Position numbers and translations under genes: made by a program. A DNA stretch of 64,000 bases from an uncultured Gemmatimonadales bacterium (lineage in GTDB: Bacteria; Gemmatimonadota; Gemmatimonadetes; Longimicrobiales; RSA9), in the NCBI GenBank assembly GCA_963798085.1, contig CAWCRS010000007.1, positions 320,001 to 384,000 on the forward strand, written 5' to 3'. How positions within the stretch are numbered: the stretch's first letter is position 1; each line of letters begins with the position of its first letter. Shown piece after piece: positions 19,431 to 36,105 of this stretch. The notes beneath the pieces are model-generated. The model was not told the DNA's origin. It ran no database searches and saw only the letters and a list, made by a program, of their open reading frames with translations.

Positions 19431-20333
19431 ATGGAATCCGTACCGAGGATTCCCCGAAAGCCCGTTGTGGCAATCGCCGGCCAGCACGAGTGGCTGGTCC
19501 GTTCGCTTGAGAGCATCTTCAGCTCGAGCGGCTTCAGCGCCGTTGCACGCGCAAGCCACGAAACTCTCGACTGGCTCGAGGCGACTCGACCGGATCTCGT
19601 CGTTCTCGAAGCCGACCCGCCGGACGTCCTCTGGCAAACCATGTTCGAAGCTGTGCGTCGCGCACGTGGCGTAACCCGCGCCACCCCGATCATTGCGGCC
19701 ACCGCGGAGTCTCTTTCGCGGGCCAGGCGCATCGACGCCCTCCGTGCTGGCGCCTGGGACGTATTCGGTCATCCTCTCGATGCCGAATCCCTCATCCTCA
19801 AGGCCAACACGTACGTGGCTGCCAAGCTCGAAGAAGAGGACACGCGCGATCGCAGCCTGATCGATCCGGAGACGGACTTCTACAACGTCCGTGGCGTTTT
19901 GCGGCGCATTTACGAAGAAGCTTCGGAAGCGGCCCGCAACCACACGCCACTGGCCTGCGTCGTGGCATCGCTCGAGTCGCCTGCGGCCGAGCCGCCTACG
20001 CCCGAGCGCACACGCGCACTCGCACAGGCGTTCCGCCGGGCCAGCCGTTCGTCCGATGTCTTCGGACGCCTCGGACCCAACGAGTTTGTGGTGGTCGCGC
20101 CCGGCACGGATTCCCCGGGCGCCCGCAGCTTCGCTCAGCGGCTCTCACAGCTGATCGCCCCGGTCACTGAAGGCACAGAAGAGCCGGGGGCGGGGCTCCG
20201 CGCCGGCTTCGCGGCTGTGGGCGATCTCTCGCGCGGCGATGTCGAGCCGGTCGACCTGTTCGTGCGCGCCGTGGCCGCGTTGCGTGCCGCACAGTCCGCG
20301 GACACCGGCGACCGTATCCGCAGCTTCGACTGA
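19431..20333 (+). CDS. Receiver-like domain plus degenerate GGDEF protein
   Basis: RPDLVVLE...ALRAGAWDVFGHP receiver-like region; LIDPETDFYN, RSSD I-site and GPNEF in place of GGDEF. Confidence 0.85.
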   Translation: MESVPRIPRKPVVAIAGQHEWLVRSLESIFSSSGFSAVARASHETLDWLEATRPDLVVLEADPPDVLWQTMFEAVRRARGVTRATPIIAATAESLSRARRIDALRAGAWDVFGHPLDAESLILKANTYVAAKLEEEDTRDRSLIDPETDFYNVRGVLRRIYEEASEAARNHTPLACVVASLESPAAEPPTPERTRALAQAFRRASRSSDVFGRLGPNEFVVVAPGTDSPGARSFAQRLSQLIAPVTEGTEEPGAGLRAGFAAVGDLSRGDVEPVDLFVRAVAALRAAQSADTGDRIRSFD

Positions 20334-23571: not shown

Positions 23572-25112
23572 ATGGCGAGTGATGTTCTGGTGAACGGCCC
23601 GGGCCGCAGCGTGTTCGCGCGCGAAGGTGCGGAGGCAAAGCCGGATGGTGTGCCCGAGGCTGAGCTTGGTGCTGAAGCCAAGGCGACGATTCATGTGCTG
23701 ATCGTCGATGACGAGTACACGCTGCGCGAGAGTTGCGCGAGCCTCCTGCGCCAGGAGGGCTATAAGGTATCCGTCTGTGAGAGCGGCACCGAGGCCGATT
23801 GAGCAGATGCGGCGCAGGCAGGTGGACATCGCGTTGATCGATCTGTTCATGGAAGGCATGACCGGCCTCGAAGTGCTTGCCGGCTGCCTCGAAGCCAAGC
23901 CCGACACGCTCGCCATCATCATGACCGGCAATCCGAGTGTCGAGTCGAGCGTGATGGCCCTGGGCGCCGGGGCATGGGATTACCTGCCCAAGCCGTTCTC
24001 CGCGACCCATCTCCAGATTCTCGTGGGGCGCGCAGCCCATACGGCCCTGCGCAACCGCGAGCAGTCGCAGACGCCCGAAGTGCTGACGCTGCCTCGTGGT
24101 CACAGTGAGAAAGTGCCGCTGCTGGGGCAGAGCCCTGCCATGCTCAAGGTCATTGAGCTGGCGCGCAAAGTCGCCGCGACCGACGCGTCCGTGTTCATCA
24201 CGGGAGAGAGCGGGACCGGCAAGGAAATGATCGCGCAGTTCATGCATCAGCACAGCCGCAGGGCCGCCCGGCCCATGGTGGCGGTCAACTGCGCAGCACT
24301 ACCCGAGACGCTGCTCGAGTCCGAGATGTTCGGACACGTAAAGGGCGCGTTCACCGGCGCCGTCCGCGACAAGCCCGGCCTGCTCGAGGTGGCAAACGGC
24401 AGCACATTCTTCCTCGATGAGTTGACCGAAATGCCGCTGACGCATCCAGGCCAAGCTGCTGCGCGTCGTTCAGGATGGTGTGGTTCGTCGGGTAGGCAGC
24501 GAGACTACGGATTCTGTCGTGAATGTACGCTTCATCGCTGCCACGAACCGCGATGTGCGCGGCGCAGTCGATGATGGCGGTCTGCGAAAGGACCTGTTCT
24601 ATCGCCTCAGCGTCGTCCCCATTCATCTGCCGCCGCTTCGCGAGCGGCCCGAGGATATCGCCCTGCTGGCAGAGAATTTCCTGATGCGCTACTGGCGGCG
24701 TCATCGCGGTTCACGCGCATCACAGCCGCGCCTGAGCAAGGCGGCGATGCGGTCGCTCGAGTCCCGGCCGTGGCGAGGCAACGTGCGTGAGTTGCAGAAC
24801 GCGATCGAGCACGCCGTCGTGCTGCTCGATCCAGGCGCGGAGATCCAGCCGGAGGACATCCCCGTCGTCATCGACAGCACGGCACCACCACCCTCGCCCA
24901 TGGCGGGGTTCGATCCGGCTGGCGAGAAGTATCACGTCGCGCGCGATCGCATCCTGGCCGATTTCGAGCGTAGCTATCTGAGCTGGCTGCTGGATCGCGT
25001 GGGGGCGAACATGTCGCGAGCCGCCAAAGTTGCAGGCGTCGATCGCACCACGTTGTACCGTCTGATGGAAAAACACGGTCTGCAGCGCGACACGGTGATC
25101 AAGGCGGGTTGA
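23572..25112 (+). CDS. Sigma54-dependent response regulator (NtrC family), frameshifts at ~23795 and ~24445
   Basis: VLIVDD receiver, GESGTGKE, ESEMFGHVKGAFTGA, DLFYRL, WRGNVRELQN and Fis-type HTH, spread over three frames. Confidence 0.93.
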
Positions 25113-26485: not shown

Positions 26486-27268
26486 ATGCTATTGCCAGCC
26501 GAATCGAGCACGACGACAATGGGGTCGAGTCAGGCGAGTGCCTTCCGCGCCTCCCCAGCCACGTCTTCGTACGACCGTGTGGTGGCGTACGAGCGGGACA
26601 TGCGGGCCGCAGAATCCGCGGCCGAGCGGACCACCGCCGAACAGCTGCGGCGAGCGCTGAATGTGGTCGCTGCGCTGGTCGCGTTCGTGCTCACGCTGCC
26701 CTTCACGCTTCTGATCGGGCTGCTGATCAAGCTGTCATCGCCGGGACCGATTCTCTACACGCAGGCGCGCGTTGGCATTGATCGACGCCGCCCCGGAGAT
26801 GGCGTGAGCGATGGTCGCCGCGTGGTTGATTACGGCGGCAAGCTTTTCCGCATCTACAAGTTCCGCACGATGTACGTGAGCCCGGGTGATGCACCGCAGA
26901 TGTGGGCCAGGCGGGATGACCCGCGGGTAACGCCGGTCGGTCGTGTCCTGCGCAAATACAGACTGGATGAGTTGCCCCAGGTGTTCAATGTCCTGCGCGG
27001 TGACATGAATCTCGTGGGTCCGCGACCCGAGCAACCGCGCATCTTCGCGCTGCTTCGCGACCAGATTCCCAACTACGAGTTGCGGCAGCGCGTGCTCCCG
27101 GGCCTGACCGGCCTGGCGCAGGTGAATCAGACATATGACACCTCAACCGAGGATGTACGTCGGAAGGTGCAATACGATCTGGAGTACATCGCGCGCCGAT
27201 CCACCACGCAGGATGTGCGTATCCTGCTGGCTACGCCGCTGGCTGTCTTTAAGAAGCGGGCCTGGTGA
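26486..27268 (+). CDS. Priming sugar-1-phosphate transferase (Bac_transf)
   Basis: [51 protein letters not shown]. Start uncertain. Confidence 0.93.
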
Positions 27269-28140
27269 CCGAATGGGTTGCCTCCCGCGCGGCGGGACGG
27301 GTGGCGGGCGTTGCCGCTCTTCCCTGGATCGCGACCGGAGCCGCCTTCCTGTTGTTGTTCTGGGGCCCGCTCGCCGGGATGTTCAGCCAGTGGCTGAGCG
27401 ATCCGGATTCGGGTCATGGTCTGCTCCTCACGCCGGTGGCGGTGGTGCTGGCAGTGAAAGCGGGCAGACTGGCGGGGAGCCGGGGTCAGCCCGTGGCAGG
27501 CGGTCTGATACTGACGGGTTCCGTGTTGCTTCGATACGTCGCAGGTCTGGCGGCCGAGGTGTTCACGATGCGGCTGTCGGCGCTTGGTGCACTGTTCGGG
27601 ATCGTCGTGTTCTTCTGGGGATTCCGACAGCTGCTGAAGTGGTGGTTGCCCGCGGTGCTGCTGGTGCTGTCGGTGCCATTACCTCAGGTGCTGACCGGGA
27701 CGCTCGCCCTGCCGCTGCAGTTCCGGGCTTCAAGGATGGGAGCGGCGATGCTGGCCTGGCGACACGTGCCCGTCGCAGTTGCGGGGAATGTGATTCAGTT
27801 GCCGAACCAGAGACTGTTCGTAACCGAAGCATGCAGCGGCCTGCGTTCGCTGACGGCCCTGTTGGCGCTCGGGTTCCTGATCGGGGGAGTGTGGCTTCGA
27901 ACGTGGTGGGCGAGAGCCGTGCTGGTACTGGCCGCGATACCGATCGCGATGCTGCTCAACAGCGTACGCATCTTCCTGACTGGATTCGCTGTGTTTTTCA
28001 TTAACCCGAAACTCGGGCAGGGCCTGATGCACTACAGCGAAGGGTGGGCGATGTTCGTCGCCGCATTCCTGACGCTCGGCGTGGGCGCCTGGGTTCTGGG
28101 CCAGGGTGAGAGCGTGCTCCTGCGGCGGAGTGCGCCGTGA
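27265..28140 (+). CDS. epsH: Exosortase (EpsH family)
   Basis: Multi-TM; VTEACSGLRSL (Cys), NSVR (Arg) and LMH (His) triad. Confidence 0.92.
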   Translation: MTEWVASRAAGRVAGVAALPWIATGAAFLLLFWGPLAGMFSQWLSDPDSGHGLLLTPVAVVLAVKAGRLAGSRGQPVAGGLILTGSVLLRYVAGLAAEVFTMRLSALGALFGIVVFFWGFRQLLKWWLPAVLLVLSVPLPQVLTGTLALPLQFRASRMGAAMLAWRHVPVAVAGNVIQLPNQRLFVTEACSGLRSLTALLALGFLIGGVWLRTWWARAVLVLAAIPIAMLLNSVRIFLTGFAVFFINPKLGQGLMHYSEGWAMFVAAFLTLGVGAWVLGQGESVLLRRSAP

Positions 28141-28772
28141 GAACGCACAGCTCGTGGGTGCCGGCAGCGATTCTGGTGGCGGGTGCTGTGCTCGTGCGCG
28201 GTGCGGGCCATCAGCGAGCGATGACGTTGCGCGAGCCGCTCAATGTCGCAGTTCCGAGGCAGATTGCCGGCATGACCGGTGAGGATCGAGCGATCTCCCG
28301 CGACGAGCAGGAAGTGGCCGGCATGTCGTCCTATGTGATGCGCGCGTTCACGAACGGTGCCGTTCCCGCGTTTTCGCTGTACGTCGGCTACTACGAGAGC
28401 CAGACGCAGGGACGCACGATTCACTCGCCGCGCAACTGCCTGCCAGGCGCCGGCTGGGAAGCGCTGTCTTCCAGTGTCATACCCATCGCCACGCCGGCGG
28501 GAACCGTGATGGTGAATCGCACGCTGGTGCAGAACCACAATGAGCGCGCTCTCGTGCTTTACTGGTACCAGGGTCGCGGCCGCATTGAATCAAACGAGTA
28601 CAAGGTGAAGTGGCAGTTGCTGCGCGACGCGGCGCTCAAGGGCCGCACGGAGGAAGCCCTGGTGCGCATCATCGTGCCCATTCAGACGACCGAAGCGGAG
28701 TCGGTCGATCTGGCAACACGCGCGGCGGCGGAAGTGGTGCCGGCCGTCTATCACGCACTTCCGAACGCGTAG
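28137..28772 (+). CDS. epsI: EpsI family exosortase-associated protein
   Basis: LYVGYYESQ, IHSPRNCLPGAGW, VLYWYQ, ALVRI; overlaps the exosortase stop. Confidence 0.9.
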   Translation: MRTHSSWVPAAILVAGAVLVRGAGHQRAMTLREPLNVAVPRQIAGMTGEDRAISRDEQEVAGMSSYVMRAFTNGAVPAFSLYVGYYESQTQGRTIHSPRNCLPGAGWEALSSSVIPIATPAGTVMVNRTLVQNHNERALVLYWYQGRGRIESNEYKVKWQLLRDAALKGRTEEALVRIIVPIQTTEAESVDLATRAAAEVVPAVYHALPNA

Positions 28773-28783
28773 GAGCTCTCTGC

Positions 28784-29314
28784 ATGGCAACAGCGGAACG
28801 CGAGCGGCCCAATGTCGTGGTGGGCAGCAGCAAGGACGTGGCACGATACCGCTTCCTTTCGTCCACGTTCTCGGCCCACGCGGCGCGCGCACTGTTCGCA
28901 GCCGGCCTCCTCTTCCTGCTGGGAAGCATGGCGGACCTGGCCATCCTGTGGTTCTATCAATTCCAGCCCGGCAATGCCTACACAGAGATGGTGGCGCTGA
29001 GCAGCACGCTCGAAGGCCTGCCCCGCATTGCCCTCGCCGCAGCGCTTATCTGGGCCGGTATGCAGATTCGCGGCACCACGTCACTGCTCGCGCACCGGCT
29101 GCTGGGCACACTTCTCCTGCTCACGGGACTGGCCGGCGGATTGGCCGGTGCCCTCCTGATCAGTGACTACTTCGTGCTGCGGGGTCAGCCTTTGACGCCC
29201 CAGGCACATGCGATTTTTGTGAGCTCAATGCTCAAGGGAACGACGCTGGCCGGACTGCATGTGTTGCTGCTGATTCCGGTCGGCATCATGAGTGTGCGGC
29301 GTCCAAGGGTCTGA
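28784..29314 (+). CDS. Hypothetical four-TM membrane protein
   Basis: AGGAG RBS; four hydrophobic segments; lies between epsI and the PEP-CTERM gene. Confidence 0.7.
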   Translation: MATAERERPNVVVGSSKDVARYRFLSSTFSAHAARALFAAGLLFLLGSMADLAILWFYQFQPGNAYTEMVALSSTLEGLPRIALAAALIWAGMQIRGTTSLLAHRLLGTLLLLTGLAGGLAGALLISDYFVLRGQPLTPQAHAIFVSSMLKGTTLAGLHVLLLIPVGIMSVRRPRV

Positions 29315-29350
29315 GCCATCCCCGGCGGACCCAGGGGCTCGCGCAAACGG

Positions 29351-29366
29351 CGGCACATCGAGAGCA
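29351..29366 (+). promoter_or_regulatory. Candidate sigma54 promoter of the PEP-CTERM gene
   Basis: CGGCAC-ATCGA-GAGCA (GG-N10-GC) about 40 nt before the ATG. Confidence 0.45.
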
Positions 29367-29408
29367 TTCTCGAGTCGCTGCCGGACAATTAGCCGGAAGG
29401 AGGTGTGC

Positions 29409-29984
29409 ATGAGTCGGATCCCGTACTTACGCAGGTCGGCGATCGCTGCGATTGCGATAGCCGCTTTCGGGGTACCCGGCACCGCGCAGGCGCAGATCGT
29501 CAATGTCTCGTCGAGTGCAACGGCGATGTGCGTGGGAACCTGCGCAACCGTGAGGTTCTCAGTTAACCTCAGCGGGACGTACTATTCGTCACGCGTGCGG
29601 TTGTTCAGCACCAACGGCAGCGAATGGCTGTTTGGTGGCCTGATCGGAGTGAAGGATGGTAACGGGAACACACTGGCCTGGACGGGCACCCTGAAGAATG
29701 GTGACCTGTTGCTGCAGGCGGCCGGTGGGCAGACCGGATGGGCGCCCGTGCCGATTTACGTGACAGCTGCAATGTCCACGTTTTCGGGGCAGAACCAGTT
29801 GTGGGATGGGTCCCTCCACTATGAAATGCTGATCGCAGGCACGTCCAATGGGGGGCAGCCCCTCGGGGAGGTCACCGGTGTGGTAACGCCTGAGCCAGCA
29901 AGCCTGTTACTGCTGGGTACCGGCCTTTTGGGAATGGTCGGAGCTGCCCGTCGCCGCAAGCGCGAGCAGACCGACAACGTCTGA
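29409..29984 (+). CDS. PEP-CTERM sorting domain protein
   Basis: Signal peptide ending AQA|Q; C-terminal VTPEPASLLLLGTGLLGMVGAARRRKR; GGAGG RBS. Confidence 0.95.
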   Translation: MSRIPYLRRSAIAAIAIAAFGVPGTAQAQIVNVSSSATAMCVGTCATVRFSVNLSGTYYSSRVRLFSTNGSEWLFGGLIGVKDGNGNTLAWTGTLKNGDLLLQAAGGQTGWAPVPIYVTAAMSTFSGQNQLWDGSLHYEMLIAGTSNGGQPLGEVTGVVTPEPASLLLLGTGLLGMVGAARRRKREQTDNV

Positions 29985-30865
29985 TTCAGTCGAAATCGGT
30001 TGCCCGGTGCCGGGCGCGCCGGGGCGGTGCGGGCAACCCCGATCCTGGGACGGATCGGTTCGGCAGATGTGGGCAAGGAGAGCCGGCGGTGCTTGATGGT
30101 CCGCAAGGACCTCATGCACCGCCGGTCTTGACGGCTCGGTGGGGTGACTCGCCGGGCCGTTGGCTTTCCATACACTGACACCGCCTCACCTCCACAACGG
30201 CAGCCTTCCAACAGCGTCAGATCCCTCGCAGGGAAACCGCGTCATTGCGCGGCCGCATCACCTGTGGTACAAGATGTGCGTAGTGAAAATTTCGCGCATT
30301 TGTGGCCGTTTTTTTTCCGCTGCGAGTCGGCCGCGGAATCGGCTCAATGCTCCACGCTGCCACTTGAGCGAGCCGTAAACACCACATCGGCGCACACACG
30401 ACTCGCCTTCGAGCGAGATCAGAATTTCTGACAATCCGGACGCGAACGCGACGTCGCAGTTGGACGCACGCGTGCTCACGACGACGGGTCTGACCGGCAC
30501 CTGAGGTCGGTGCCTCGCCGGAGAGGGCAATAACCGGGTCGCACCCGAGCCTCGTTCCCAGGAAACTGGAATCGGGCTCGACCGCCGGTTTCACACCCGT
30601 GCCGATGCGGGTGCCAGGGACGGGTGCGTCCACCACCCTCGGGTCGGCGAACCTCTGGACGAAAGGGGCGATGGAGCGCCGGAATCGGTGCCGGCGAGGA
30701 TCCGCGGAAGGGCACAGCAACGCGAGCACATTTTTGCGTGGGCGACGCATTGTTTTCCTCGACCAGCTCGGGCTGGCGACTTTTCCACAATCGTATAAGT
30801 GACTGCCGATGAAATACTTATGGTGCTTACCCTGAGACCGGAACGGAGCCTGAATCAGGTTACGA

Positions 30866-30966
30866 CCGCGCTGCTCAGAGCAAAACCGTCGAAAGGCGGT
30901 GACGCAGAGCTACGGAGCTTCGGTAGGGTCACTCCCACCCACCATGCCAGCCGGGCCGCCAGCGAC
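30866..30966 (+). ncRNA. GEMM-I (cyclic di-GMP-I class) riboswitch, A20 variant
   Basis: CAGAGCAAAACCGTC-GAAA-GGCGGTGACGCAGAGC...CATGCCAGCCGGGCCGCC: P2 stem with GAAA tetraloop, GACGCA junction, P3; in the 5' leader of the Ig-repeat lipoprotein gene. Confidence 0.88.
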
Positions 30967-30993
30967 TCGAAAAGAGTTGAATGGCGGCTTTTT
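30955..30993 (+). terminator. Intrinsic terminator (riboswitch expression platform)
   Basis: GCCGCCA..GACTC-GAAAA-GAGTT..TGGCGGC-TTTTT; the 5' arm is the 3' end of the aptamer. Confidence 0.8.
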
Positions 30994-31033: not shown

Positions 31034-34000
31034 ATGCAGATGACGCAGGTTTCTTTCCGCCCGTTGATGAAGACGCAGGCTCTGCTCCTCGCACTCATCA
31101 CGCTCCTCCCCGTAACGGCATGTCAGGATAAGGGCACGCCCCTTTCGACTGATCATATTCCGGCCAAGGGCCAGTTCATCGAGCTGGTTCCGAGCCTGGC
31201 AGAAATTCCTTCATCCGGTGATCGCGTTCAGATCATCGCCAATGTTCGCGACGCACTCGGCAAAGCGGTATCGAACCCGAGCATTCACTGGGAATCCACA
31301 GATACCAGCATTGCTTCGGTCGACGGTTCCGGAATGGTGACCGGTCTGGGCGAAGGCGTCGTCGAAATCAACGGCACGTATGGCAACATGACGGCCACTT
31401 CTGTCGTCGCGGTGGCGAAGAAGCGTCTGCAGAGAGGCACCGCCTCGGTAGCGATTTCGCCCACATCGGCCACGATCAATCTGGTGGGTGGCACCGTGAA
31501 GTTCCTGGCGGTGGCGCGCACCGGGTCGGGCACACTGGTTTCAGGCTCGCGGCTGAGCTGGCAGACCACGAACCCGAGTATCGCAACGGTGGATGGCAGC
31601 GGCGTGGTCGCGGGCGTCGCGTCAGGCGACACTCGCGTGATCGTTCACTACGAGTCTGTGGCGGATACGGCTGATGTCTCGGTGGCGCCGCCGACGGTGG
31701 CAGTCGCTCTGCACATCGACCCGAAGACGGACACGCTGCCAACGGTTGGTTCCACGCTGCAGATGCGCGCCAGCACGGTGAACGCCAGTGGCGATGCCGT
31801 GGCTGGAGCGAAGGTCACGTGGAGCACACTGGACCCGACGGTCGCGTCCGTGGGCACGGATGGTGGCGTGACGGCGCTGGCCAAGGGCGTAGCGCGGATC
31901 CGCGCGGCTTCCGGCACGCTCGCGGATACGGCACACCTCTGGATCGCACCGGCTCCCACGCCCGTGAACCTGTATGTGTCGCCGGCTTCCGATTCGATTA
32001 CGCAGGTGGGCGGCACGACGAAGCTGGTTGCCACCATGCTGGACGCCAATGGCCAGCCGGTTACCGGGCTGCTCGTCACATGGAAGAGCCTGACCGCTTC
32101 CGTCGCTTCTGTAGATGGAACCGGTCTGGTCAAGGGCCTGGCGAAGGGTACGGCGCGTATCACGGCGAGCTACAGCACTCTGCTGGATACGGCCGAGATC
32201 GCAGTTGCGATGGCGCCCACACCCACGGCACCCTTCCGTATCGTGCTTTCTCAGAAGGTGGATACAATCGCCGCTATTGGTGAGACGGTCGACCTGTCTG
32301 CGCACGTGTTTGATGCCAACAATCGCGAGTGGGCCACCGTGATGCCCACGTGGTCGAGCCTCGACGTGTCGATCGGTGCGGTTTCGCCGAGCGGCACGGC
32401 ATCGCAGACCGTGACGGTAAGGGCCGTGAACAAGGGCACGGCGCGTGTCATGGCGAAGTACGGAACCGCAGTTGACACCGCGCGCATTCTGGTTGCGCCG
32501 GTGGCGACGCCCACGACCAAACGCGTCACGATCCAGCCCAATCCGGACACACTGCTGGTCGGTGAAAAGCTGCAGCTGGTGGGCTACGACGCCGAGAACC
32601 AGCCGATCCCTAACAGCGGGTTGGTATGGAGCTCGCTCAATCCGGGCACGCTCTCGGTGACGGCCGACGGCCTCACTCAGGGCGTCGCTGCCGGCACCGC
32701 TCGCATTGTGGCCACTCGTTCCAACGGGGCGGACACAGCGACCTACTTCGTGCTGCCGTCCACAACGGTGCTCAGGCGGGTGGCGATCCGGCCCAACGCG
32801 GATACGCTGTACCACCGCGGCGACACCATGCAGCTGGAGGCGTACGACCTGGAGAACCAGGAGATTCCGAACGCCAATCTGGTCTGGAGTTCGCTGAATT
32901 CGAGCGTCCTCACGGTCGACGCGGACGGCATGATCACAGCCGGTAATGCAGGTACGGCCAGGGTCGTGGCGACATCCTTCAACGGCGCCGACACGGCCAC
33001 CTATGTCGTGCTGAATCAGTCCACAGGAACGGGTGGCGGCAGCACTTCGGGAAAGGCGTCGGTCGTCGTGAGCCCGCCCACCGCCAGCATCGTGGTAGGA
33101 GCCACGGCGGTGCTGAGTGCTACAGCCTGGGACGCACAGGGCAACGTCATGTCGGGCGCATCACTGACCTGGTCGAGCCTTGATCCCGCATACGCAAGCG
33201 TTGCCGCCTCGGGCGTGGTGACCGCAGTCGCCAAGGGCAGCGCCCGTATCAAGGTTGCCTACGGCGCAGTAGCGGATACGGCCATGATCACGGTCAACGC
33301 CGCTCCGAATACAGGCGGCACGCAACCGCCGGCGGGCGTCAATCTGACGCCGGTAGCCCTGCGGCCGCTGCTGGGTGCGCTGGTTTCGCGCAACACGACC
33401 GTTGCCGGCTGGCCCGCGCACTTCGATCAGAATCTGGATGCGGCGATCGCTCGCATGGTGGCGGAAGTCGCCAGCGGTTCGTACTGCAGCATTCCGGACT
33501 GCGCGGACCAGGACAATCCGCACTACGGCCCGCTGCGCATGGTGACCATGCGCAATATCCGGGCAGGCCTGCCGCTGGATCCGTCGGAGCCCGGCTTTGC
33601 CGCGGCGCTGAAGATCACGAAGGAAGCGATCCAGGGTTACTTCAAGCCGACCGGCACGTACCGCGTGTCGCAGGCCCAGCGTTATTCGATGGAGGCGGAT
33701 GCCGAGATCGTGTGGCAGCTGACGCAGAGTGGACAGCTCCACGACGCGCAGCTGGCCGCGGACGCGAAGGACTTCATTCAGTCGGCCGCAACCTGGTTGA
33801 GCACGTTCCTCACCACGTCAACCGAGAATCTCGACCACCAGTGGATGGATGAGCGCATTATCGCGATCGATCTGGATGTGTCGATGTCGGCGGAACGGAT
33901 GGGGCTTCCGTACGGCGTCAAGACGTTCGGCCTGATGCCATTCCAGCCGGCGGGCGTAAACTCGTGGAAAGATTGGATCGACTACGTAGCCGGTTATGTG

Positions 34001-34519
34001 AAGCGCATGCAGGACGCCACGTGCGCCCGCTGGTGCGGCACGAATGACCCACTTGGCAAGCCGATTCTTTACGGCAACATTCGGTACGGCATCAACGGCG
34101 GCTGGACGTCCGTCACGCAATACGTCAAGCCGTATCCGATCCTCTTCTTCGAGGATGCCATGCTGACGGACGCACTGCTGCGCGCGTGGCGGCTGTATGG
34201 CTGCGCCGCCTGCCGTGACCGTGCTATCGAAATGACGGCCGGCGTGCAGGAGCACTATGATGCGTCGCAGCACGCGCTGCCTTACCGCAGCCACGGCTCC
34301 AACATGTGGAACAGCGTGCACGACCTGGACAACTTCTGGGTACGGCCACTGCTCGAGATGTACGAGCTGACGGGCGCCTCGTGGATGCGTCAGACGGCGC
34401 TGCAGCTCCTCGACGCCAGCAAGAATGGCTCATGGACCTGGCGCTTCAAGCAGGCACAGGAGCTGGGTTCAGCAACGGATCCGCAGTCGGCTCAGGCCTG
34501 GCTGGCTGGGGTTCACTGA
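31034..34519 (+). CDS. Lipoprotein with ~7 Big_2 Ig-like repeats and an uncharacterised C-terminal helical domain
   Basis: Lipobox LPVTA|C; repeated WxSxDxxVASVDxxGxVTAxxxGxAxI units; Gly/Thr linker; ~400-aa C-terminal domain shared with the next two genes. Confidence 0.9.
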   Translation: MQMTQVSFRPLMKTQALLLALITLLPVTACQDKGTPLSTDHIPAKGQFIELVPSLAEIPSSGDRVQIIANVRDALGKAVSNPSIHWESTDTSIASVDGSGMVTGLGEGVVEINGTYGNMTATSVVAVAKKRLQRGTASVAISPTSATINLVGGTVKFLAVARTGSGTLVSGSRLSWQTTNPSIATVDGSGVVAGVASGDTRVIVHYESVADTADVSVAPPTVAVALHIDPKTDTLPTVGSTLQMRASTVNASGDAVAGAKVTWSTLDPTVASVGTDGGVTALAKGVARIRAASGTLADTAHLWIAPAPTPVNLYVSPASDSITQVGGTTKLVATMLDANGQPVTGLLVTWKSLTASVASVDGTGLVKGLAKGTARITASYSTLLDTAEIAVAMAPTPTAPFRIVLSQKVDTIAAIGETVDLSAHVFDANNREWATVMPTWSSLDVSIGAVSPSGTASQTVTVRAVNKGTARVMAKYGTAVDTARILVAPVATPTTKRVTIQPNPDTLLVGEKLQLVGYDAENQPIPNSGLVWSSLNPGTLSVTADGLTQGVAAGTARIVATRSNGADTATYFVLPSTTVLRRVAIRPNADTLYHRGDTMQLEAYDLENQEIPNANLVWSSLNSSVLTVDADGMITAGNAGTARVVATSFNGADTATYVVLNQSTGTGGGSTSGKASVVVSPPTASIVVGATAVLSATAWDAQGNVMSGASLTWSSLDPAYASVAASGVVTAVAKGSARIKVAYGAVADTAMITVNAAPNTGGTQPPAGVNLTPVALRPLLGALVSRNTTVAGWPAHFDQNLDAAIARMVAEVASGSYCSIPDCADQDNPHYGPLRMVTMRNIRAGLPLDPSEPGFAAALKITKEAIQGYFKPTGTYRVSQAQRYSMEADAEIVWQLTQSGQLHDAQLAADAKDFIQSAATWLSTFLTTSTENLDHQWMDERIIAIDLDVSMSAERMGLPYGVKTFGLMPFQPAGVNSWKDWIDYVAGYVKRMQDATCARWCGTNDPLGKPILYGNIRYGINGGWTSVTQYVKPYPILFFEDAMLTDALLRAWRLYGCAACRDRAIEMTAGVQEHYDASQHALPYRSHGSNMWNSVHDLDNFWVRPLLEMYELTGASWMRQTALQLLDASKNGSWTWRFKQAQELGSATDPQSAQAWLAGVH

Positions 34520-34774: not shown

Positions 34775-36105
34775 ATGCCGCAAACGAAGCTGTCGGAAGC
34801 TCAGCGCCATGCGGGACTGCTGCTGCTCATCCCTGTTCTGAGCGCCTACCTGACTGCCTGTTCGAGAGTGCCGGGCATCGTCGAGCCTGACCCGGTGCTT
34901 CCCACGCACGTTCAGGTGGATGGCGATCTCACGCCGCCCGCGCTCTATGGCGTTACGGGTTTTCTGATTGCGCGCAGCACGCCGGTAGCAGGATGGCCGT
35001 CGCATTTCGATCAGAATCTGGATGCCGCCATCGATCGCATGGTGGCGGAAGTTGGGGCGGGCTCGTATTGCAGCATCCCGGACTGCGCAGACGGTGACAA
35101 TCCGCACTACGGGCCGCTGCGCATGGTGACCATGCGCAATATTCGCGCGGGTCTGCCCCTCGATCCGTCAGAGCCGGGCTTTGCAGCCGCCCTGAGAATC
35201 ACGCGGGAAGCGATCGAAACCTACTTCAAACCGACGGGCACCTACCGCGTTTCCCAGGCGCAGCGTTACTCGATGGAGGCGGATGCCGAGATCGTGTGGT
35301 GGCTGACACAAAGAGGCGAGCTGGGCGACACGCAGCTGGCATCTCGATGCCAGAGACTTCATTCACTCGGCGGCGAACTGGCTGTCGACCTTTCTCACAA
35401 CCAAGACCGAGAACCTCGATCATCAGTGGATGGATGAGCGCATCATCGCGATCACGCTGGATGTGGCGATGTCTGCGGATCGCATGGGCATCCCGTATGG
35501 AGAGAAGTACGCGAACCTGGCGCCATTTCAGCCGGCGGGTGTGCACTCGTGGAAGGACTGGGTCGAGTACATTGCGGGATACGTGAAGCGCATGCAGGAT
35601 GCGACCTGCGCGCGCTGGTGCGGCCAGAACGATCCTCTCGGAAAGCCGATCGTGTACGGCAACATCCGCTATGGCATCAATGGTGGCTGGACGTCCGTGA
35701 GTCAGTATGTCCAGCCATACCCGATCCTCTTCTTCGAGGATGCGATGCTGGCGGATGCTCTCTTGCGTGCGTGGCGTCAATACGGTTGCACAGCGTGTCG
35801 GGATCGCGCCATTGAAATGACCGCGGGCGTGAAAGAGCACTTCGACCCGGCGCAGCACGCGCTGCCATATCGGAGCCACGGCTCCAACATGTGGAACAGT
35901 GTTCACGACCTTGACAACTTCTGGGTACGGCCGCTGCTCGGAGATGTACCAGCTGACCGGCGAAGCGTGGATGCGTGAGACCGCGGTGGATCTTCTCGAC
36001 GCGAGCCGCAACGGGGCCTGGACCTGGCGCTTCAAGCAGGCACAGGAGCTGGGCTCCGCGACAGACCCGCAGTCTGCGCAGGCGTGGCTGACCAGCATAC
36101 ACTGA
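34775..36105 (+). CDS. Lipoprotein paralog 2 (stand-alone helical domain), frameshifts at ~35345 and ~35940
   Basis: Lipobox YLTA|C; long stretches nearly identical to the C-terminal domain of 31034-34519 across three frames. Confidence 0.85.

Follow-up and report, generated by a model that had tools for sequence, protein, structure and literature searches.

The 64-kb stretch of DNA analysed here (hereafter the window) carries a riboswitch of the GEMM-I fold in the leader of a gene for a predicted lipoprotein. Its pocket has an A at position 20 and a G48-C90 pair, it overlaps an intrinsic terminator, and the subtype that it represents is conserved among relatives of the host and co-occurs with Hypr-type GGDEF enzymes in other lineages. 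Judged from these sequence comparisons, it would be a ligand-ON switch whose preferred ligand is probably 3',3'-cGAMP.

What is established about riboswitch signalling by cGAMP comes from Geobacter and a small number of other deltaproteobacteria. Should cGAMP be the ligand of the A20/G48 subtype, the pathway would reach the Gemmatimonadota, Nitrospirota and Acidobacteriota as well; in these phyla its targets would be Ig-repeat surface lipoproteins and its writers MASE1- and GAF-fused Hypr enzymes. A20 alone does not predict the ligand, and G48-C90 is a second base pair that may add to the prediction; this rule and the cross-phylum link of the variant to Hypr enzymes are what our analysis tests. 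A lineage that keeps the switch without a Hypr enzyme implies either that c-di-GMP serves as the fallback ligand of A20 switches or that a further cGAMP synthase exists.

The aptamer and its binding pocket

The Rfam c-di-GMP-I model (RF01051) matches over its whole length (model positions 1-87) at 30869-30963 with 53.6 bits (E 1.1e-7; gathering cut-off 35 bits), in agreement with the sequence-only reading of this region as a GEMM-I aptamer. This is the sole Rfam match in the window, and no second GEMM-I copy was found in the 6.2-Mb host genome (90% complete) by a pattern scan together with covariance-model scoring of 150 of 229 candidates. The features are as follows, all on the + strand:

27265..29984, +, exosortase, EpsI-like protein and PEP-CTERM protein within an exopolysaccharide locus (upstream context)
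30869..30964, +, GEMM-I (c-di-GMP-I fold) aptamer, A20/G48 variant (RF01051, 53.6 bits)
30869..30873, +, 5' strand of P1, five Watson-Crick pairs with 30960-30964, closed by G14-C93 (sequence, pair list)
30874..30879, +, J1/2, C-U-C-A-G-A, with A20 at 30879 (bases read directly)
30880..30905, +, P2 with GAAA tetraloop, first pair G21-C46 (Rfam alignment, pair list)
30906..30908, +, A47 (intercalating), G48 (variant, pairs with C90 at 30957) and A49 (bases read directly)
30907..30957, +, P3 with the tetraloop-receptor region (Rfam alignment; alignment with relatives, from which the wrong-stranded row of G052 was left out)
30959, +, C92, pairs with the ligand's beta guanine and is also part of the terminator hairpin (base read directly)
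30955..30993, +, intrinsic terminator, hairpin 30955-30988 and U5 at 30989-30993 (folding, -26.2 kcal/mol)
31034..34519, +, controlled gene, 1161-aa predicted lipoprotein (Cys30) with seven Big_2 repeats (domain search)

Vc2-style numbering was transferred to the aptamer from the published helix limits of Gs1761 (PMC6274999) and Vc2 (PMC3764141). In the numbering of Gs1761 itself, P1 is closed by G8-C76, J1/2 runs from A9 to A14 and P2 starts with C15-G40, followed by A41, by P3 opened by A42-U73, and by G74 and C75 (PMC6274999); in Vc2, G14-C93 closes P1 and A49 is the A-minor base (PMC3764141). Read directly in this frame, the pocket of the window RNA comprises G14 (30873), C15-U16-C17-A18-G19 (30874-30878), A20 (30879) and G21 (30880) on the 5' side, then A47 (30906), G48 (30907) and A49 (30908), and C90 (30957), G91 (30958), C92 (30959) and C93 (30960) on the 3' side. 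The pairing of 49 with 90 given by Rfam itself was rejected, as A49 is nearly invariant and 48 covaries with 90.

Recognition of the ligand's alpha nucleotide falls to position 20 (PMC6140456). The sequence-only reading had placed an A there, at 30879, and had the equivalents of A47 and C92 retained; its coordinates and bases are correct, and a public contig spanning 30678-31112 shows 0 differences to the window (at a depth of 4.8, and possibly from the window's own sample, so that it is not an independent witness). A20 is genuine, since 43 of 44 aptamers with the same J1/2 type in relatives have it; a sequencing error at 30879 was rejected on this ground and on that of the exact contig. That reading overlooked a second change in the pocket, from A48 to G, paired with C90, and on the sequence comparisons below it is the G48-C90 pair that appears to define the variant.

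The aptamer has in common with the c-di-GMP-I aptamer Vc2 of Vibrio cholerae G14-C93, G21-C46, C44, A47, A49, C92 and the GAAA loop, but differs from it at two of the four ligand-recognising bases, G20 being replaced by A20 and A48, which is named among the four, by G48 (PMC3764141). It has A at 30879 and G at 30907 where c-di-GMP-selective aptamers of the Vc2 type combine G20 with A48, and it has all three bases (A20, A47 and C92) of the GEMM-Ib or c-AMP-GMP class. These bases, the three-helix fold and surface-protein targets are common to the Geobacter GEMM-Ib switches Gs1761, Gm0970 and pilM. Gs1761 has C21-G46 and A48-U90 (C15-G40 and A42-U73 in its own numbering), whereas the window has G21-C46 and G48-C90 together with the C-U-C-A-G loop. 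The Gs1761 pairs are a feature of that aptamer and not of the whole class, because many aptamers of the Desulfuromonadales (the order of G369) combine A20 and G21 with either base at 48.

Outside Geobacter, A20 in a GEMM-I fold is also found in the bispecific aptamers Cbe 1-2 of Clostridium beijerinckii and cluster 3 of Desulfobacca acetoxidans. For Cbe 1-2, PMC6140456 gives 30 nM for c-di-GMP against 463 nM for cGAMP, for the G20A form of Vc2 53 against 120 nM, and it describes protonation of A20 as supporting c-di-GMP binding in three aptamers, even preferentially. The earlier assignment of A20 as a mark of the c-AMP-GMP class is partly sustained: A20, A47 and C92 are all present, but A20 alone is not diagnostic, Cbe 1-2 preferring c-di-GMP (PMC6140456).

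Terminator overlap and proposed switching

The expression platform lies in the leader of the gene, with the terminator at 30955-30993 and the gene start at 31034/31040. The hairpin (30955-30988) has a folding energy of -26.2 kcal/mol (z -4.6, with 0 of 200 shuffles equally good), and is absent from the output of a simple terminator scan (it has an internal loop). Its 5' arm contains C89, C90, G91, C92, C93 and the 3' strand of P1, so that aptamer and terminator are mutually exclusive, as had been noticed from the sequence. Constrained to the aptamer the RNA folds at -39.0 kcal/mol, against -55.0 kcal/mol with the terminator. The pair probability of P1 is 0.48-0.61 in transcripts ending at 30966-30976 and that of the terminator at least 0.99 once the transcript reaches 30986, in a nearest-neighbour energy model from which ligand and tertiary terms are absent and in which the base of P3 stays below 0.1.

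Because the terminator pairs with C92, we infer that ligand binding would switch the downstream gene ON, and the transcriptional ON switch of the sequence-only reading holds in that sense. The same terminator-exclusive ON logic has been measured for the pilM cGAMP switch of Geobacter (PMC9262584), in which the terminator likewise takes the ligand-pairing C. As we picture it, P2 and P3 would fold first, and P1 would have its chance to close when the 3' end of the transcript is at about 30966-30976. The ligand, seated between A20, A47 and C92, would thereby hold C92 and P1, and transcription would continue into the gene of the Ig-repeat lipoprotein; in ligand-free RNA the hairpin 30955-30988 would form and RNA polymerase would stop at U5.

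The second pocket change could contribute to ligand choice. In simulations of Gs1761, N3 and the 2'-OH of the A48 equivalent bond to the ligand (PMC6274999). With a G48-C90 pair, the minor groove would present a 2-amino group to the Watson-Crick edge of the alpha base; this group would suit N1 of adenine and clash with N1-H/N2-H of guanine, providing a second filter against c-di-GMP. This contact, which G48 may make, is a model drawn from published text and not from coordinates; as an alternative, G48-C90 would only stabilise P3 in a manner suiting A20.

A promoter scan of the region found none. A weak terminator-like hairpin at 30735-30749, 120 bases 5' of the aptamer, is at chance level. Three loci of relatives (L041, L042 and L045) have in common an element beginning GGCACG about 20-60 bases 5' of the aptamer, which resembles a sigma-54 -24 box and has no clear counterpart in the window.

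The A20/G48 subtype among relatives and in other phyla

All 127 RF01051 matches from 61 genomes (the host and 60 relatives, 38 of the 61 having a match) were compared. Positions 20 and 48 are coupled: the combinations are A/G in 55 aptamers, A/A in 3, G/A in 63, G/G in 2 and C/A in 4, so that G48 is found in 55/58 A20 aptamers and in 2/65 G20 aptamers. The coupling is seen in both structural backgrounds, with 43 A/G aptamers of the GAAA-loop type and 12 of a second type, and the 48/90 pairs are G-C in 55 aptamers, A-U in 43, A.C in 27 and other in 2. The four C/A aptamers, at L228, L223, L218 and L213, combine C20 with an A48-U90 pair.

The window's own type (C15 with G48) is represented by 44 aptamers in 28 genomes, 43 of them with A20 and only one with G20. 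C92 lies within a downstream hairpin in 42 of the 43 A20 aptamers of this type, and a U-rich tail is present in 27/43, compared with 2/63 of the G20/A48 aptamers. The exact J1/2 hexamer is common to 35 of the 127 aptamers, the loop being far more conserved than in G20 aptamers. Big_1/Big_2 domains head 16/32 scanned ORFs downstream of window-type aptamers and 1/43 of those downstream of G20 aptamers (the Pfam scans covered hand-picked sets of 90/125 and 48/71 downstream ORFs).

In GTDB, a scan for the exact motif yielded at least 123 loci. Of 127 pattern matches, 110 passed a structure filter and the other 17 were left out of the counts; those that passed come from Gemmatimonadota, Nitrospirota, Acidobacteriota, deltaproteobacteria and a small number of further groups. 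In the Desulfuromonadales, A20 aptamers have G48 in 21 cases and A48 in 29 (a hand count among 150 listed of 296), and G48 accompanies G20 in 6 of 129 rows, only one of which has a P2 hairpin. By these counts, two unrelated lineages both tolerate G48 beside A20 and avoid it beside G20, and the base is not unique to the window's subtype.

Many A20/G48 carriers also have ordinary G20 switches. In G009 (C64:9614-9992) the two stand in tandem on one gene, the A20/G48 aptamer with its terminator coming first and the G20/A48 aptamer sitting behind it on the ribosome site, at 11 bases from the start codon, an arrangement that suggests two different inputs; no Hypr motif was found in this genome. Tandems of A20/G48 aptamers alone, at a spacing of about 157-159 bases, were seen as a triple (G064:C36:1987-2337) and as a double (G064:C3:4808-5003).

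In the literature, a full-text search that did not extend to the founding papers and their supplements found, among the best 20 matches, no paper joining a Gemmatimonad with these riboswitches, and no riboswitch paper was found among those containing the motif (best 20 of 32 matches). The founding papers and their supplements may contain tested A20/G48 aptamers.

Co-occurrence with Hypr-type GGDEF enzymes

Hypr GGDEF enzymes have Ser where diguanylate cyclases have Asp, and this Asp drives GTP specificity (PMC6456294). The Hypr serine motif was found in 35 of 42 variant carriers outside the Gemmatimonadota, and all 30 translated loci are of the GGDEF family with Ser. Among 201 genomes of the Nitrospirota (the phylum of G350), 55/56 carriers have the motif, compared with 51/145 others, after G421 and G571 were dropped as chance matches; without nine genomes that had been reached through the motif, the figure is 46/47 carriers. 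Among 301 genomes of the Gemmatimonadota the motif is present in 40 (29 of 30 translated loci being real), namely in 22/43 carriers compared with 18/258 others, and within family f4 alone in 20/29 compared with 14/96. Carriers with several copies of the switch have it more often (15/18) than those with a single copy (7/25). Because the genomes are kin and not independent of one another, the counts overstate the association; the DNA patterns demand Gly-His and therefore miss GSU1937-type GGDDF enzymes with Ser (one was seen in G354), so that pattern negatives are upper limits on absence and the domain-by-domain checks alone are firm.

The enzymes of the relatives, MASE1-GGDEF proteins in family f4 and GAF-GGDEF proteins in the window's order, carry the serine of the known Hypr systems (GacA, GacB, GSU1937 and Bd0367), and the best solved match of one of them is GacA (PDB 6D9M). 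It is because the motif tracks Hypr-serine GGDEF enzymes in both Nitrospirota and Gemmatimonadota that cGAMP is favoured as the ligand of the A20/G48 variant.

The Nitrospirota enzymes are not uniform. By hand count, 41 of the 55 positives (5 translated) come from a single Ser/GGEEF clade, which co-occurs tightly with the riboswitch variant; its members at L322-L326, L457 and L464 are GAF-GGDEF proteins in which Ser occupies the Hypr site and is accompanied by a Hypr-like cross-dimer Tyr, a two-residue insertion and GGEEF. According to PMC6456294, Ser/GGEEF is inactive in GacA and natural Ser enzymes have exclusively GGDE(F/Y). The remaining 14 Nitrospirota positives and the Gemmatimonadota enzymes are ordinary Ser/GGDEF proteins. 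A full-text search of the literature found no link between Hypr enzymes and Nitrospirota.

The conserved MASE1-GGDEF proteins of family f4 (L364, L369 and L366) have a layout outside that of the Hypr enzymes in the literature consulted. Another Hypr-serine GGDEF domain (L385:127-1851) is fused to 4Fe-4S and hydrogenase-like domains and could, from this architecture, be a redox-sensing synthase; its orthologues in G064 and G101 apparently have Asn at the Hypr site.

The source of the signal and competing explanations

The search of the genome for Hypr-type GGDEF enzymes that the sequence-only reading had proposed as a check was negative: none of the 14 GGDEF domains of the host (genome 90% complete) has Ser/Thr at the site of GacA 347/348, nine of them having intact diguanylate-cyclase motifs with Asp, and tblastn with twelve Hypr proteins found no orthologue, the lack of a GacA-type enzyme being one point at which the host departs from the Geobacter systems. 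One host protein shares the GGDDF motif type of GSU1937, the second cGAMP synthase of Geobacter (PMC8835794), but has Asp at the site, as have its orthologues in seven other genomes, and it was rejected as a hidden Hypr enzyme. Hypr domains were likewise absent from the 15 examined of 17 GGDEF domains in the congener G001, the 15 examined of 21 in G010, and all 50 in four members of the same family (G013, G032, G033 and G036; 95-97% complete, 1-8 contigs), which retain 2-3 intact switch copies each. In the order set as a whole, a GAF-Hypr gene is scattered over 6 of 61 genomes, 4 of them among the 27 variant carriers, and in the phylum sample the motif is absent from 21/43 carriers.

Other marks of cGAMP signalling were sought as well. 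The CD-NTase profile PF18144 (SMODS/DncV-like) had no match in the host genome, in a search that did detect its positive controls, or in any of 36 family genomes; PF21654 and NF041078 gave no match in the host genome either, with no positive control responding to these two profiles. No Rxx(Q/N) HD-GYP (signature from bioRxiv 10.1101/600031) was found in the host, where 8 of 9 motif hits are RxY(K/R), the c-di-GMP type, and one is unreadable behind a frame break. The genome has one CdaA-like cyclase, but c-di-AMP was rejected as the ligand, as C92 specifies guanine. Of the cGAMP signalling suggested from the sequence, the ligand part is upheld as likely, the variant tracking Hypr enzymes in two phyla, whereas none of the Hypr, CD-NTase or Rxx(Q/N) HD-GYP partners was found in the host. 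The signal there would be either c-di-GMP, read through a protonated A20, or the product of an unrecognised synthase.

It is possible, though on balance somewhat unlikely, that the aptamer binds both dinucleotides and works in this lineage as a c-di-GMP ON switch through protonated A20, the motif having been inherited from a Hypr-bearing ancestor and A20, G48-C90 and the CUCAG loop having been kept since they only fold well together. In its favour, protonation of A20 supports c-di-GMP binding in three aptamers (PMC6140456), this is the one GEMM-I found in a host where nine diguanylate-cyclase motifs are intact and a cGAMP synthase of a known kind was not found, 23 of the 27 carriers among relatives are without a Hypr enzyme, and surface adhesin-like genes in an exopolysaccharide locus suit c-di-GMP biology. 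Such a switch would however be hard to reconcile with the near absence of G48 beside G20 in two unrelated lineages, which is expected if G48 disfavours guanine, with G20 in only 1 of 44 window-type aptamers though a single transition would suffice, and with the presence of ordinary G20 switches in many carriers, in one case (G009) as the second member of a tandem on one gene. A retuning of the pocket by A20, G48 and the CUCAG loop to some other purine dinucleotide with one guanine is far less probable still: it would account for a loop so much more conserved than that of G20 aptamers (exact hexamer in 35/127) and for the failure of the enzyme link in the window's order, but the variant's association with serine-bearing GGDEF enzymes in two phyla points to what these enzymes make, and C92 rules out c-di-AMP by known base pairing (PMC6140456).

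Overall, 3',3'-cGAMP is the ligand that we consider probable, and what counts against it in the aptamer itself is the Vc2-like G21-C46 pair and the ability of A20 aptamers to prefer c-di-GMP; against cGAMP signalling in the host stand the failure to find a known synthase and the low share of carriers in the order with a Hypr enzyme (4/27). A cGAMP-selective switch could also persist with no internal signal, the Hypr gene lying in the unassembled tenth of the genome or the switch being a relic that keeps its gene off, an explanation that overlaps with the preferred one as to ligand and differs only as to source. The completeness of 90%, the frameshifts in the assembly and the scattering of the GAF-Hypr orthologue through the order (6/61) would fit it, but we consider it improbable, as the four genomes of 95-97% completeness in 1-8 contigs also come without Hypr and yet have 2-3 intact copies each, and the retention of pocket and terminator by the copies argues against decay. 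A bolder and doubtful proposal is that G48-C90 is a second general determinant of strictly cGAMP-reading GEMM-I aptamers in at least four phyla and that the window's order makes cGAMP by a third enzyme class, neither Hypr GGDEF nor CD-NTase, which would keep the switches under selection. If such a class exists, the window RNA would be a ready reporter for finding the enzyme.

The controlled gene and its exopolysaccharide locus

The gene downstream of the switch codes for the 1161-aa Ig-repeat lipoprotein and stands in a PEP-CTERM/exopolysaccharide locus, in line with the surface lipoproteins of an EPS locus in the sequence-only reading; a PEP-CTERM gene precedes the riboswitch in G001 too. The C-terminal domain of the lipoprotein (about 390 aa; window 33341-34516) has no Pfam match, and just 7 database homologues are comparable to it in length. 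Its Atlas look-alikes, at 0.90-0.91, include alpha/alpha-toroid sugar enzymes, and a kinship with these is a lead only. The next gene carries a paralogue of the domain (window 34775-35437), with 81% over 36% of the domain.

Frame breaks, probably assembly indels, split three genes: a sigma-54 activator, a second lipoprotein and the GGDDF protein (window 23708-25112 and 34775-35978, and G000:C7:1596582-1597640). The same exopolysaccharide locus also encodes, at 19431-20333, a receiver domain joined to a degenerate GGDEF domain with no catalytic motif; such a gene lies near the switch in G001 too, and its product is a candidate nucleotide receptor.
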